64,000 nt of DNA from an uncultured Clostridia bacterium (GCA_934180065.1 CAKPRA010000001.1:12669-76668), one strand, 5' to 3'; positions 1 to 63,272 are shown, counted from the first letter of the stretch. The notes: generated by a model not told the origin, from the sequence alone. Numbers and translations are program-made.

Positions 1-2103
1 GATGATGTATCAAAATATGATTCTATTGAAAATTATTTTGACAATTTATATACAAATATTGATTTAGAAAATACTATTTTTAAATCTATTCTAGATGAGA
101 ATACTGTAGCTGACGAGGCTTCGCCTGCTCTTGCCAGTTTACGCAGAAAAAAAAGAAATTTAGAGGCTTCTATAAAAGATAATTTAAGCAAACTTATCCA
201 TTCATCAACATATTCAAAATATATAATGGATCCTATAGTTACAATTAGAAATGATAGATATGTTATTCCTGTTAAAGTTGAATATAAAGATAATATAAAA
301 GGCTTTGTTCATGATATATCATATAGCGGATCTACTGTATTTATAGAGCCTATTTCAATTTTTGAGTTAAATAATCAAGTACACAATCTACAGCTAGAAG
401 AAAATGTTGAAATTGAAAGAATTTTAAAAAATTTATCTGATTCTATAGTTCCAATTGTAAACAATATTGAAATTTCACTAGATTCTATTGCAAATTTGGA
501 TTTGATCTTTGCAAAAGCTAAGTTTTCTAATAAATTTAACTGTGTAGAGCCCATTATAAATGAAGAAAAATTTATTGATTTTAAAGAAGCTCGTCATCCA
601 CTTATTGATGAAAAAATCGTTGTTCCTATTGATATTGAAATTGGAAATAAGTATACATCTTTAATTATTACAGGACCAAATACTGGCGGAAAAACTGTTA
701 CTTTAAAAACTGTTGGATTATTGTGTTTAATGGCTTATTTAGGACTACATATTCCTGCCAAAGATGGTAGTAGTTTATATGTTTTTGATAATATATTTGC
801 AGATATTGGTGATGAACAAAGCATTCAAGAATCTTTAAGTACATTTTCTTCACATATGCTAAATATCATCGAAATTTATAAACAAGCAACATCAAAAAGT
901 CTTATATTAGTAGACGAATTAGGCTCTGGAACCGATCCTATTCAAGGTGCTAACTTGGCAATTAGTATATTAGAATATTTTAATAAACTGGGAGCTTTAT
1001 CACTTGCCACAACACATTATCAAGAAATAAAAAATTATGCACTTGTTACAGATGGATTTGAAAATGCAAGCTCTGAATTTGATATTGTGAATTTAAAACC
1101 AACATATAAATTGCTTGTTGGTGTTCCTGGAAAAAGCAATGCTTTTGCAATAACTAAACGACTTGGAATGCCAGATTCTATATTAACAAGAGCTGAGGAG
1201 CTTATGAATGACGAACATATTAGTGTTGAAGAGCTTATTAAAAATATCTATGATGATAAGGTAGAAATTGAAAAAGAAAAAGATAAAATAAAACAAAACT
1301 CTAATCAAATAGAGCTTTTAAGAAAAAGCTTTGACACAAAAAATTCACAATTATCAACAAAAGAAAATGACATTATTGAAAAAGCTAAAATACAAGCCCG
1401 TGAAATTCTGCTAAATGCAAAAAAAGAAGCTAATTCTATTATATCAAGTTTAAATGAACTTTATAATAAAGCAGATGCTCACGCCTTAAAACAAGCTAAT
1501 TCTATAAGAAATAAGCTTAATGAAGATATAAAAAATACAAGTTCACCTTCAAATACAGACAATAATCTTGAGAATTCAAGTAAATTGGAAAACATAAATA
1601 TTGGTATGACTGTATTTGTAAAAACATTAAATCAAAATGGAACTATTCTTACTTTACCAAATAAGTCAAATGAAGTCCAAGTTCAAATTGGAAGTATGAA
1701 AATGAATATAAAAACAGATAAGTTAGTGGCTGTAAAAAATAATACACAAAAACCTAAAAAATCTAATACAGATAAGAGCTTTAACAACAAAAGTTTTAAT
1801 AATAGATTAAAAAGTAAAACTGCTGTTACAGAAATTAATGTAATTGGAGAAACAGTTGAAGAAGCAATATTTGTTATTGACAAATTTTTAGATGATTCTG
1901 TACTAGCAAATTTAGAAAGCGTAAGAATCGTTCATGGAAAAGGAACAGGTAAATTACGCCAAGGAATTCACAAGTTTTTAAAAACAAATGCACATGTAGA
2001 ATCATTTAGACTAGGCACCTTCGGAGAAGGCGAAGCTGGCGTAACTGTTGTTAAATTGAAAGGTACGGAAACGGGAACGGGAAAAAGGGACGGTTCTCTT
2101 TGA
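1..2103 (+). CDS. mutS2: Endonuclease MutS2 (5' end outside the window)
   Basis: Frame 1 is open from nt 1. Walker A GPNTGGKTVTLKTVG is present, with a C-terminal Smr domain (VRIVHGKGTGKLRQGIHKFL). The last 13 aa (GTETGTGKRDGSL) are encoded by a G-rich repeat unit. Confidence 0.9.
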   Translation, partial: DDVSKYDSIENYFDNLYTNIDLENTIFKSILDENTVADEASPALASLRRKKRNLEASIKDNLSKLIHSSTYSKYIMDPIVTIRNDRYVIPVKVEYKDNIKGFVHDISYSGSTVFIEPISIFELNNQVHNLQLEENVEIERILKNLSDSIVPIVNNIEISLDSIANLDLIFAKAKFSNKFNCVEPIINEEKFIDFKEARHPLIDEKIVVPIDIEIGNKYTSLIITGPNTGGKTVTLKTVGLLCLMAYLGLHIPAKDGSSLYVFDNIFADIGDEQSIQESLSTFSSHMLNIIEIYKQATSKSLILVDELGSGTDPIQGANLAISILEYFNKLGALSLATTHYQEIKNYALVTDGFENASSEFDIVNLKPTYKLLVGVPGKSNAFAITKRLGMPDSILTRAEELMNDEHISVEELIKNIYDDKVEIEKEKDKIKQNSNQIELLRKSFDTKNSQLSTKENDIIEKAKIQAREILLNAKKEANSIISSLNELYNKADAHALKQANSIRNKLNEDIKNTSSPSNTDNNLENSSKLENINIGMTVFVKTLNQNGTILTLPNKSNEVQVQIGSMKMNIKTDKLVAVKNNTQKPKKSNTDKSFNNKSFNNRLKSKTAVTEINVIGETVEEAIFVIDKFLDDSVLANLESVRIVHGKGTGKLRQGIHKFLKTNAHVESFRLGTFGEGEAGVTVVKLKGTETGTGKRDGSL

Positions 2104-2112
2104 CACATATGG
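2079..2112 (+). repeat. GC-rich REP-like unit R1, left inverted repeat of a 467-bp segment
   Basis: gggaaaaagggacggttctctttgacacatatgg is the reverse complement of 2510-2545 apart from a 2-nt indel. The same unit type occurs at 59046-59093, 59130-59177 and 45626-45670. Confidence 0.75.
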
Positions 2113-2162
2113 AAACAGGGACACATTTTATTTTAGACTGCGTGTCCCTGTTTCTATTTTTG
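2112..2162 (+). terminator. Intrinsic terminator after mutS2
   Basis: 13-bp stem gaaacagggacac / gtgtccctgtttc (2112-2124 / 2142-2154) followed by a T-rich tract. Confidence 0.6.
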
Positions 2163-2225
2163 CTAACCTTCCATTTTTTTCTTTTAGTAGCTTAATTTAT
2201 ATAAGACTCGCTTATCTAACTATAG

Positions 2226-2299
2226 ATGTCAATATCAAAACTTAAAAAAATATTATAAGTTTTTAACTTTAACATTTTTTTAAGTTTTGATATTGACAT
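2226..2299. repeat. Perfect 25-bp inverted repeat with a 24-nt loop
   Basis: atgtcaatatcaaaacttaaaaaaa (2226-2250) is the exact reverse complement of 2275-2299. Confidence 0.8.
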
Positions 2300-2509
2300 T
2301 TACATCTAACGAAACATCTTCTTGCTCTGCTTCAACAGACAATTTATAACATCACCAAACTGCCTTTAATGAAATTTTCAAATTTATAAATATAAATATA
2401 AAATATTCGAACCTTTTTATTTCTAAAGCTTCTGTGTGATGTTTCTTTATTTTTTTCATATGAGTATCCATTATATTCTAACGCTTTTGACAGTTCATCA
2501 AACCTTTGT

Positions 2510-2545
2510 CCATATATGTGTCAAAGAGAACCGTCCCTTTTTCCC
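2510..2545 (-). repeat. GC-rich REP-like unit R2, right inverted repeat
   Basis: ccatatatgtgtcaaagagaaccgtccctttttccc is the reverse complement of R1. Confidence 0.75.
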
Positions 2546-19460: not shown

Positions 19461-19834
19461 GTGTAATTATATTATATAAAAAAATGAAAAGTCGCGCAGT
19501 TTGGAAGCTTTTAGAAAAACATCTTAACTTCACAAAACTAAAACGAGGGTACTACAACTTTCACACTACTTTGTACGGGCGACCAGCAAGACTCGAATTT
19601 TTTTATATAATATAATTACACGGCCTCTTTACTATATTTTTTAATTTATATTGATGAAAAGTCGCGCAGTTTGGGAGCTTTTGGCTAAACATCTTAACTC
19701 CACCAAACTAAAACAAGGGTACTACAGCTTTCACACTACTTTGTACGAGCGACCAGTAAGACTCGAATTTTTTTATATAATATAATTACACGGCCTCCTT
19801 ACTACATTTTTTAATTTATATTGATGAAAAGTCC
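19461..19834 (+). repeat. Structured element family, locus A: left arm plus two 170-nt units plus an 8-nt start of a third
   Basis: The 25-bp perfect arms 19461-19485 and 19597-19621 clamp a ~110-nt core. The unit repeats at 19656-19825, with its right arm at 19767-19791. Confidence 0.8.
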
Positions 19835-29786: not shown

Positions 29787-29977
29787 AATAAATTCATTCC
29801 CCTCAATAAAAAGCTTATATTAATTCCTTAATATATATTCTAATATAAATTTTTAATGAGCTTTATAATTATAAAAAACAAGTATCATTCCCCTATTACT
29901 TTCCATAACTCAAAACAAATTATTACTATTTACAATATACTAATTATCAATAGCTCCATCATATAAAAAGTAGAGTA

Positions 29978-30280
29978 GGACATGTGAATATATATATTAA
30001 AAAGAAGTGCCACGCAGCTTGGGAGCTTTTAGATAATGCTCTAATACAACAAAACTTAAACGAGGGCACTACCAATCTCACACTGCTTTGTACGGGCGAC
30101 CAGCAAGGCACGAATTTTTAATATATATTCACATATCCGGCTTATTATAAAATACTAACACGTAACATATAGTCTGGAAGCTTTTATATAATATTATCCT
30201 ATTACAACAAAACTAAAATGATGGCTCTACAATCCTCACAATACCTTGTATAGGTAACCAGCAATAAGTAACTATGAATA
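29978..30280 (+). repeat. Structured element family, locus B: one intact unit plus one decayed armless unit
   Basis: Arms 29978-30003 / 30115-30138 clamp core 30004-30114. A second, diverged core lies at ~30170-30275. Confidence 0.7.
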
Positions 30281-57701: not shown

Positions 57702-57842
57702 AATTTTCCTCCTATGTTTTCTCATCTTTTTATCGGTTTAATTGTAGTCTATAAAACAAAAAAAGTCTATAGTTTTTACAAAAATCTCATTAATAATTAT
57801 TCATTATCATTACTATTCATTGCTATATTTTTTAGATAAGCA

Positions 57843-57865
57843 GGACATGTAGATATATATTAAAA
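57843..57865 (+). repeat. Solo left-arm-like sequence of the structured element family
   Basis: ggacatgtagatatatattaaaa compares with the locus C left arm ggatatgtagatatatatattaaaaa. It overlaps the dnaJ stop codon. Confidence 0.5.
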
Positions 57866-59008: not shown

Positions 59009-59045
59009 ATAAATTATTCCTTTCTTGTGAGGGAAGAGGAAAAAA

Positions 59046-59177
59046 GGGAAAAGGGGACGGTTCTAAAATCCCAATTATGGGAAAAAGGGACACTTTTTAA
59101 TTAATTTAGTTTAATTTTAATATTCAGGAGTGTCCCCTTTTCCCATAATTGGGATTTTAGAACCGTCCCCTTTTCCC
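59046..59177. repeat. Giant hairpin built from two inverted REP-like units (48-nt arms, 36-nt loop)
   Basis: Arms 59046-59093 and 59130-59177 are reverse complements with one mismatch. They are flanked by purine and pyrimidine tracts. Confidence 0.85.
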
Positions 59178-59215
59178 CTTTCCTTTTTCCTTTTCTTTTT
59201 TCTTTTCTATTTTAA

Positions 59216-62766: not shown

Positions 62767-62793
62767 TTAGCAGTCTTTTTATCTGAGTGCTAA
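62767..62793. promoter_or_regulatory. CIRCE operator of the hrcA operon
   Basis: ttagcagtc-tttttatct-gagtgctaa matches TTAGCACTC-N9-GAGTGCTAA at 17/18 positions. Confidence 0.85.
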
Positions 62794-62912
62794 ACTGTGT
62801 ATATATTATATCCAAAAACGATGAATGTCAATACCTAATTTAAGTAATTTTGTGAATTTTTTGTGTACAAGTTACTATTCACAAATAAGAATCAATTTAA
62901 TTTACTACAATA

Positions 62913-63238
62913 GGATATGTAGATATATATATTAAAAAAAATGACGCGCAGTTTGGGAGCTTTTAGATAAGCTCTTAATACCACAAACTTAAAACGAGGG
63001 CACTTCCACTCTCACACCACCTTGTATGGGCGACCAGCAAGTCATGTATTTTTAATATATATATCTACATATCCGGCCTCTATAAAAACATTAAATAAAA
63101 AAATATAACGCGCAGTTTGGGAGCTTTTAGATAAGCTCTTAATACCACAAACTTAAAACGAGGGCACTTCCACTCTCACACCACCTTGTATGGGCGACCA
63201 GCAAGTCATGTATTTTTAATATATATATCTACATATCC
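62913..63238 (+). repeat. Structured element family, locus C: left arm plus two near-identical 164-nt units
   Basis: 26-bp perfect arms 62913-62938 / 63049-63074. The second unit has its right arm at 63213-63238. Confidence 0.8.
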
Positions 63239-63272
63239 GGCCTCTATAAGAACATTAAATAAAAAAACATCC

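Follow-up and report, generated by a model that had tools for sequence, protein, structure and literature searches.

The window analyzed here, a stretch of 64,000 nucleotides from an uncultured Clostridia bacterium (GCA_934180065.1 CAKPRA010000001.1:12669-76668), carries a real and unannotated repeat family, which we consider, with a confidence somewhat above even, to consist of dispersed non-coding palindromic DNA elements akin to REP/BIME/REPIN or MITE repeats. The arms that enclose each element covary between loci, and the core between them does not. In this lineage the element has colonized several intergenic sites where relatives have no copy, some of its copies have decayed to fragments or solo right arms, and sequence is exchanged between copies; taken as a whole, the family does not fit a dedicated structured RNA gene.

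Anatomy and genomic setting of the repeat family

Six copies of a GC-rich core of ~110 nt are present at three loci in the window, all on the + strand, and an HMM built from these six window cores gave nhmmer E-values of 1e-23 to 1e-33 for the copies. The same loci recur in 17 independent metagenome contigs, so the repeat is real and not a product of chance. Each of the three window loci consists of one left arm followed by two successive units of core, right arm and tail, and the arms at loci A and C are perfect inverted repeats of 25-26 nt.

Locus A lies between the divergent genes for topoisomerase III (topB) and clpC, and opens with a 25-nt left arm (19461-19485, + strand) that is preceded by CTAG and forms a perfect inverted repeat with both right arms (19597-19621 and 19767-19791). 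The 111-nt core of its first unit (19486-19596, + strand; nhmmer E=2e-32) has 41% GC against 14% GC in the intergenic surroundings, and is followed at 19597-19655 (+ strand) by the first right arm (19597-19621) and the CGGCCT foot with its 34-nt tail (19622-19655). Unit 2 (19656-19825, + strand; core 19656-19766, right arm 19767-19791, then tail) has no left arm of its own and gives way to the first 8 nt of a third unit (GAAAAGTC, 19826-19833, + strand). By direct-repeat search the two units are 88-89% identical with a period of 170 nt. The layout that the earlier note read at 19461-19834 (arm, core, perfect right arm, 34-nt tail, 170-nt period and an 8-nt third unit) is present in every part, and the same core does recur, as it had said, at 30.0 kb and 62.9 kb, with all six copies on the + strand.

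Locus B, between a MurJ-like flippase gene and a TraG/VirD4-like gene, begins with the 5' foot motif AGAGTAG and a left arm (29972-30004, + strand), followed by unit 1 (30005-30145, + strand), which comprises a core (30005-30115), a right arm and a CGGCTTAT foot; left and right arms here differ by one mismatch and a 2-nt indel. Its second unit is a decayed core (30160-30271, + strand) with 70% identity, many GC-to-AT changes and a missing right arm. Locus C, with a DUF212 gene's terminator on one side and the promoter of hrcA on the other, has a 26-nt left arm (62913-62938, + strand) preceded by ATAG, which forms a perfect inverted repeat with 63049-63074 and 63213-63238; unit 1 (62939-63102, + strand; core 62939-63048, right arm 63049-63074, CGGCCT foot and tail) and unit 2 (63103-63262, + strand; core 63103-63212, right arm 63213-63238) are 97% identical. 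In addition, a solo remnant made up of a right arm with its foot and tail lies in the opposite orientation (57829-57865, - strand) just downstream of dnaJ.

A single element is thus a long imperfect foldback of 160-290 nt, built from a conserved asymmetric foot ((A)GAGTAG on the 5' side, CGGC(T/C)T on the 3' side), a perfect 25-26-bp AT-rich stem and a 110-nt GC-rich loop (the core), together with a weak outer inverted repeat of ~20 nt. Of the left arm, inner units of the arrays retain just a vestige of 17 nt, and nowhere in the sequence examined is the arm sequence found apart from the elements. Core GC content is 41-47%, compared with 14-21% in flanking intergenic DNA, and drift toward AT is seen among the cores only in the arm-less second copy at locus B. 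This GC-richness argues for a real constraint on the core, one that a selfish-DNA reading leaves unspecified.

The window itself is chromosomal, with 27% GC, and encodes EF-Tu/EF-G, ribosomal proteins S7/S12, ComEC, SSB and an hrcA-grpE-dnaK-dnaJ cluster with a CIRCE operator. Its HrcA is 88% identical to that of 'Clostridium sp. CAG:492', and human-gut metagenome assemblies are the only source of exact HrcA matches. Over its full length the + strand has a negative GC skew and is therefore the lagging-strand sequence. Upstream of hrcA we observed the CIRCE operator (TTAGCAGTC-N9-GAGTGCTAA) and a TTGACA-17-TAATAT promoter (window 62768-62795, 62803-62831). In relatives hrcA follows fmt, and here it follows the DUF212 gene and locus C, so the repeat sits at a synteny break.

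A different palindromic family, built on GGGAAAAAGGGACGGTTCT, is also present in the window (2079-2545 and 59042-59181). One of its instances has 32-nt perfect arms 403 nt apart, and the other, between dnaJ and dnaK, has 60-nt arms (92% complementary) 20 nt apart. The motif GGGGACGG occurs as well in large palindromes downstream of dnaJ in contigs L013-L015.

Distribution across databases, strains and relatives

A search of the whole window against Rfam 15 at gathering score returned three tRNAs only and no match to the repeat, and at E up to 10 the segment 19400-19900 gave only matches far below threshold, in keeping with the earlier note, which could not place the repeat in any riboswitch, ribozyme or sRNA class. 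Among the 185,579 species representatives of GTDB, a 19-mer from the most conserved block gave four chance matches in unrelated GC-rich MAGs; this 19-mer occurs four times in the window, yet the scan missed the window's own genome, the species being absent or masked there. A degenerate 29-mer fitting all six copies had no match in JGI metagenomes and none in IMG/VR, a scan of JGI metagenomes with the 5' block yielded 10 chance matches confined to the seed, and blastn found no match in PLSDB or INPHARED.

Copies were found only in ENA metagenome contigs that encode the window's exact or near-identical proteins and belong to the same gut species, and in one further ENA contig (L027) located through a spurious ORF. 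Sister-species contigs (HrcA 88-89%) have no copy in 21 kb around hrcA, and relatives with 62-65% HemN identity have none in the orthologous recO-prmC and hemN-asp23 spacers; loci D and E are missing from the orthologous spacers of two relatives (contigs L028 and L030). As far as these databases were searched, the family is confined to one uncultured human-gut Clostridia species. Within that species ~7 loci lie in ~90 kb of genome, a density whose extrapolation suggests many copies genome-wide.

Our analysis also revealed variation in array size among same-species contigs, from 1 to 2 or 3.4 units. At locus A, in the topB-clpC spacer, all four other contigs carry a dimer, and unit 2 of strain variants shows patches converted towards the unit 1 sequence. 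At locus C, in the DUF212-hrcA spacer, the array is a monomer in seven contigs, a dimer in three as well as in the window, and 1.5 units long in one, so that unit 2 is missing in 7/11 strain contigs; some locus C alleles bear a 3' core end of the locus D type, which indicates exchange between loci. Locus D, between recO and the 6S RNA gene, occurs as a monomer, as a monomer with a truncated unit, or as a dimer. Locus E, in the hemN-asp23 spacer and in opposite orientation, is a decayed copy in some strains and a solo right arm in others, and locus F, on contig L027, combines a single left arm with three complete units of 165 nt and the first part (50 nt) of a fourth.

The combination of one left arm with two right arms, which the earlier note had singled out as unusual, therefore loses its special status: it is a tandem array whose unit number varies among strains (1, 2 or 3.4), and we do not think that the dimer state is functionally required. 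Arrays end in partial units, and each tail closes with 15-20 nt that are similar to the left arm at its inner end (ATATTAAAAAAAATGAC vs. ATAAAAAAATATAAC at locus C, and ATGAAAAGTC on both sides at locus A), so the duplicated module is bounded by short A-rich direct repeats. Compared with the relative on contig L030, locus D is a ~280-nt insertion with TGGTAA on both sides, a putative target duplication that is ambiguous, with a third TTGGTA inside the element and a single locus to draw on.

Several further observations concern the same species. Between recO and prmC, ~9 kb past the right end of the window, there is a 6S RNA gene (L020:1753-1938; Rfam RF00013, 102 bits), and immediately upstream of the promoter of this gene locus D has inserted in antisense orientation. 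A large serine recombinase is represented ~5 kb upstream of recO by fragments (L031:286-1913), namely a Resolvase ORF of 97 aa and a Zn_ribbon_recom ORF of 251 aa, which have the appearance of a disrupted gene. In every same-species contig the gene for the Era GTPase is called as two ORFs (a 228-aa GTPase and a 46-aa KH part; L017:1-356 region, L031:5604-6510), and in the relatives on L028 and L030 it is a single gene of 301-302 aa; the split could be a frameshift, a pseudogene or programmed recoding.

Pairing in the arms and in the core

The arms show double-sided compensatory changes between loci, with A-U replaced by G-C at two adjacent positions, and the resulting variants still pair (GTAGAT/ATCTAC at locus C, GTGAAT/ATTCAC at loci B, D and F, and GTGGAT/ATCCAC at locus E). 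Locus A has arms wholly different from those of the other loci, and these too are complementary, so that the claim of differing arms that nevertheless pair holds across A, C, B/D/F and E. Pairing is perfect in most first units. Of the single arm mismatches found in some strains, one forms a wobble pair on the + strand and two do so on the - strand; the attempt to assign a strand from these mismatches was dropped, as the evidence is conflicting and gives no RNA-strand signal.

The core behaved differently. Single-sequence folds had z-scores from -2.5 to +1.3 over either strand and differed between copies. On the + strand RNAalifold proposed three elements (P2, H1 and H2), with a closing helix that joins the two most conserved blocks (GCAGYUUGGGAGCUU with GGGCGACCAGC, a GA/GA internal loop included), a 4-bp hairpin and a 5-bp long-range helix. 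In the best consensus structure, derived from 26 distinct cores and containing 18 core pairs, 98.9% of cells pair, and none of the 18 pairs is changed on both sides; shuffles reached its values in 70-74 of 500 trials. The + strand consensus energy of -8.0 kcal/mol was matched by 13% of column-shuffled alignments (z = -1.07), and the - strand (z = +0.7) did worse than the mean shuffle. The earlier note's proposal of selection on an RNA or ssDNA fold thus finds no backing within the core, where double-sided changes number zero and the energy and score fall among those of the shuffles.

The + strand core helices do contain 12 extra pair types, all reached through G.U or A-U intermediates. Among intact copies, all but one of the one-sided core changes keep pairing through G.U, and G-to-A changes are confined to G.U positions, where the same pairs would break on the - strand. 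We regard this G.U-preserving variation as a weak post-hoc hint that the core may fold on the + strand, and not as a result.

Two helices had been reported to covary. For the innermost one, the three pairings AGTC/GACT, GTGCC/GGCAC and ATGAC/GTCAT are all present in the window, but Watson-Crick pairing extends to only 11 of the 18 distinct first units, the other seven having GTGAC/GGAAC, a variant that may be read as a tandem G.A motif. For the second, the difference between the two units of locus A (GGAAG..CTTC vs. GGGAG..CTCC) is there as described, but the helix pairs only at that locus; every other copy has an A.A mismatch at this place, and we rejected it as a feature of the family.

Coding potential, promoters and terminators

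No conserved start codon or reading frame was found across copies. None of the array periods of 158, 164, 169 and 170 nt is divisible by 3; in several frames stretches of 35-60 codons are open, with an alternation of stops and sense codons, and one frame reads through the array with a 165-nt period. We rejected a protein-coding reading on these grounds (no conserved start, alternating stops, frame-breaking periods), in agreement with the earlier judgment that selection does not act on a protein. ORFs of 43 and 44 aa overlap the two units of locus A (window 19484-19615 and 19651-19785), and these are not genes, because the two differ by seven amino acids, each through a non-synonymous change, and a stop closes the frame at loci B and C. 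When a concatenated six-frame peptide query was compared with 5.8 billion proteins, the single match was a 199-aa 'protein' (P0121, L027:815-1414), an artefact of an open frame running through the in-frame repeat array with the 165-nt period.

Consensus scans detected no conserved sigma-70-like promoter or intrinsic terminator inside the elements, and the same scans recovered the hrcA, clpC and topB promoters and the DUF212 terminator. A candidate promoter spanning arm and core (TTGGGA-17-TAATAC) was set aside, since the invariant T is missing from its -10 and the scan had not picked it up. Relative to neighboring genes, copies are sense, antisense or divergent, with no consistent orientation.

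Hairpin feet and other hairpin families

The left arm is preceded by AGAGTAG at loci B, D and F, by ATAG at locus C and by CTAG at locus A. Every right arm of the family described here (family 1) is followed by a CGGC(T/C)T foot, which places a CT beside the hairpin in each case (CGG-CT-T, CGGC-CT or CGG-CT-C). Three further hairpin families are present in relatives; their arms (26-42 nt) and GC-rich cores (130-200 nt) are unrelated to those of family 1, but their feet are the same: TAGAGTAG / ... / CGGCTTATTTTAA is common to these families, with CGGCCCC (no CT) in family 2, and feet of the form TAGAGTAG / ... / CGGCTTATT also occur in the relatives' intergenic hairpin elements. The elements concerned lie at L028:5708-5926, L028:16086-16283, L013:15173-15224, L014:15135-15423 and L015:14379-14561. 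The feet resemble those of GTAG-tagged REPs, an analogy drawn from four small families.

At one locus family 3 has a core between its arms in L014 and L015 and is a core-less 56-nt palindrome in L013; the foot in L014 is symmetric (AAGCCG ... CGGCTT), and L013 and L015 switch to CTACTCT exactly at the foot of the hairpin. The existence of family 3 with and without a core suggested that the core may be an insertion into a pre-existing palindrome, although a deletion between palindromic arm ends would explain L013 equally well, and family 1 shows no duplication at the junction of core and arm. A dif/Xer-like reading of right arm and tail was rejected, as it fits only locus D, with an 8-nt spacer.

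Interpretation of the repeat family

What favors a REP- or MITE-like DNA element is its restriction to one lineage, its gain at empty sites, its decay, exchange and variable tandem number, and the feet that it has in common with unrelated hairpin families, together with the lack of a supported core fold and of transcription signals. The earlier note had allowed that the copies might simply be a MITE with conserved termini, at the expense of its structural reading, and the common feet, the empty sites in relatives and the decay come close to that picture. Against the REP- or MITE-like reading, loci A and C have CTAG and ATAG instead of GTAG, the element measures 160-290 nt and includes a conserved loop, compared with 20-40 nt for REPs, and the target-site duplication rests on one ambiguous locus.

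If the family is such an element, its arrays may be products of replication slippage or unequal exchange, probably favored by the hairpin, in which the A-run on the inner side of the left arm is matched with the similar A-run that closes the tail; inner units would have no left arm for that reason. The arms may stay complementary because the folded single strand is the form that a trans-acting enzyme recognizes, and the GTAG foot and the CT just 3' of the hairpin would suit a RAYT/IS200-like HUH nuclease; another possibility, which may also act alongside the first, is that intrastrand template switching repeatedly copies one arm from the other. The GC-rich core would be kept for the element's own propagation or for binding of a host protein. 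The mobilizing enzyme is purely something that we infer, because neither the 30 ORFs scanned in the window nor the genes listed for the loci (~150 kb in all) include a transposase or RAYT gene.

One feature is unexplained by a selfish-DNA reading, namely the strongly GC-rich and well-conserved core, and for this reason we keep two alternatives in which the core itself folds. In one, which we think unlikely though deserving of weight, the family is a structured ncRNA on the + strand, with the arm helix as a processing stalk (e.g., for RNase III) or a terminator-like clamp, and with a core made of a closing helix with a tandem G.A loop and two small hairpins. Such an RNA would account for a GC-rich island in very AT-rich spacers, for P2, H1 and H2 being paired in nearly all cells and gaining their 12 extra pair types via G.U or A-U, for pairs that would break on the - strand, for the frequent GTGAC/GGAAC variant of the innermost helix (P1) being readable as tandem G.A, and for a U run after the 3' half of P1; having no Rfam match, it would be new. 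It has to contend, however, with a core in which no pair has changed on both sides and whose score shuffles reach in 70-74 of 500 trials, with an alifold energy within the null, with single-sequence folds that are not unusually stable and differ between copies, and with the lack of a conserved sigma-70-like promoter or intrinsic terminator; moreover, inner array units have neither left arm nor P1, orientation to neighboring genes is inconsistent, and copies decay, vary in number and are missing from the relatives' orthologous spacers examined. The other alternative, to which we give a rather small chance, is that these are undescribed 'footed' giant hairpins of Firmicutes (AGAGTAG ... CGGCYT) in which the GC-rich loop would be a cargo folding as + strand RNA or ssDNA and the stem a clamp only; the loop could then be a small RNA freed by RNase III, or the recognition module of a new HUH-type enzyme.

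BIMEs are proposed binding sites for a nucleoid-associated protein or gyrase, and we considered it fairly improbable that the repeat is a comparable host cis-acting DNA element, i.e., an array of nucleoid-protein or gyrase sites, or an insulator or terminator, possibly linked to stress genes. It would agree with sequence blocks that are conserved where pairing is not, with BIME-2-like tandem units of strain-dependent number and with copies adjoining clpC, hrcA-grpE-dnaK-dnaJ and asp23, but other copies adjoin unrelated genes (TraG-like, recO/6S RNA, sbcC-like), relatives regulate the same operons without the element and with CIRCE and promoter conserved, decayed copies are tolerated, and no binding protein can be named. 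Perfect inverted repeats flanking a ~110-bp segment in spacers that are promoter-proximal at loci A and B also recall an inverton, with the arms as recombinase sites and the core as a flipping promoter, and one left arm with two right arms could permit alternative inversions. This is nonetheless very improbable: the orientation of the core relative to its flanks is constant in 17/17 same-species contigs, with the inverted state not seen in any of them (assemblies would hide a minor orientation), the core yielded no promoter in the scans, there is no invertase gene in the vicinity, and the arms differ between loci, where the targets of one invertase should have a common sequence. We see hardly any more reason to believe in a single-strand origin or ssDNA promoter of an integrated conjugative element, whose hairpin would rebuild a double-stranded promoter. 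Its function would depend on orientation and on hairpin formation, and loci A and B do adjoin genes for topoisomerase III, a TraG/VirD4-like protein and Replic_Relax; against this, loci C, D, E and F lie among housekeeping genes, the stem rebuilds no -35/-10 pair, and the window is chromosomal.

Should the REP- or MITE-like reading be true, the range of REP/BIME-type tagged palindromes would include uncultured gut Clostridia, where they would be unusually enlarged and have a conserved loop. Because the elements lie at synteny breaks and vary among strains, they are of use as strain markers and probably drive rearrangement; they also lead to spurious gene calls, the 199-aa 'protein' that is an in-frame array being one. 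If the core proves to be expressed and structured, it would represent a new RNA or ssDNA motif.

Comparison with known systems

STAXI and some other Rfam motifs are suspected to act as ssDNA and occur in tandem near topoisomerase or SSB genes. Like STAXI-type motifs, the family described here has tandem copies, a human-gut origin and one locus beside topoisomerase III; unlike STAXI, it is matched by no Rfam model, STAXI's included, at gathering score or at E up to 10. We also considered a retron msr-msd and rejected it, as no reverse-transcriptase gene is adjacent, the neighbors being topB/clpC, murJ-like/traG-like, DUF212/hrcA and recO/6S RNA.

As with IS200/IS605-derived PATEs and integron attC sites, the element would be recognized as a folded single strand, with motifs at its foot and a variable stem. 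In contrast, IS200/IS605 ends carry two separate subterminal hairpins in direct orientation and attC sites carry RYYYAAC/GTTRRRY core sites, neither of which is present here, and no TnpA, TnpB or integrase is nearby. Long-hairpin MITEs (Correia/NEMIS, RUP, BOX, ERIC, bcr1) are closer in build, being 100-300 nt in length and non-coding, with 25-26-bp terminal inverted repeats as here; a MITE is defined by terminal inverted repeats of 15-30 bp and no coding capacity, and our elements have 25-26-bp arms and no conserved ORF. They are likewise intergenic, dispersed and species-restricted, with presence/absence differences between relatives; their modules vary in copy number as in BOX A-Bn-C, and a hairpin is predicted in the RNA if they are transcribed. 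They depart from MITEs in that the sequence of the inverted repeat differs between loci, the core and the feet being the conserved parts, and in that no known parent IS has matching ends and target duplication is uncertain.

In REPs, GTAG directly 5' of the hairpin and an adjacent CT cleavage site are RAYT determinants on ssDNA (PMC8266576, PMC3733652), and a 2013 survey of tagged REPs never mentions Firmicutes or Clostridia (PMC3733652). Unlike REPs, our arms are not self-folding units of 20-40 nt and pair instead across a 110-nt conserved GC-rich loop, with REP-like length approached only by the core-less family 3 copy in L013 (56 nt); the 3' foot is CGGCYT and not an inverted GTAG, and loci A and C have CTAG and ATAG. 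Also unlike REP/BIME elements, inner array units have no left arm, the host belongs to the Clostridia, and the sequence covered holds no RAYT gene. The likeness to the REP/BIME/REPIN elements of E. coli, Pseudomonas and Stenotrophomonas lies in an extragenic palindrome with CT beside the hairpin and, at loci B, D and F, GTAG on its 5' side, and, as with REPs, the families are species-specific, several occur per clade, and it is the stem hairpin and not its sequence that is conserved. As in BIME-1, inverted arms clamp a conserved linker, and the tandem clusters, of 1, 2 or 3.4 units at periods of 158-170 nt, differ in size from strain to strain much as BIME-2 clusters do, although their inner units keep only the 17-nt vestige of a left arm.
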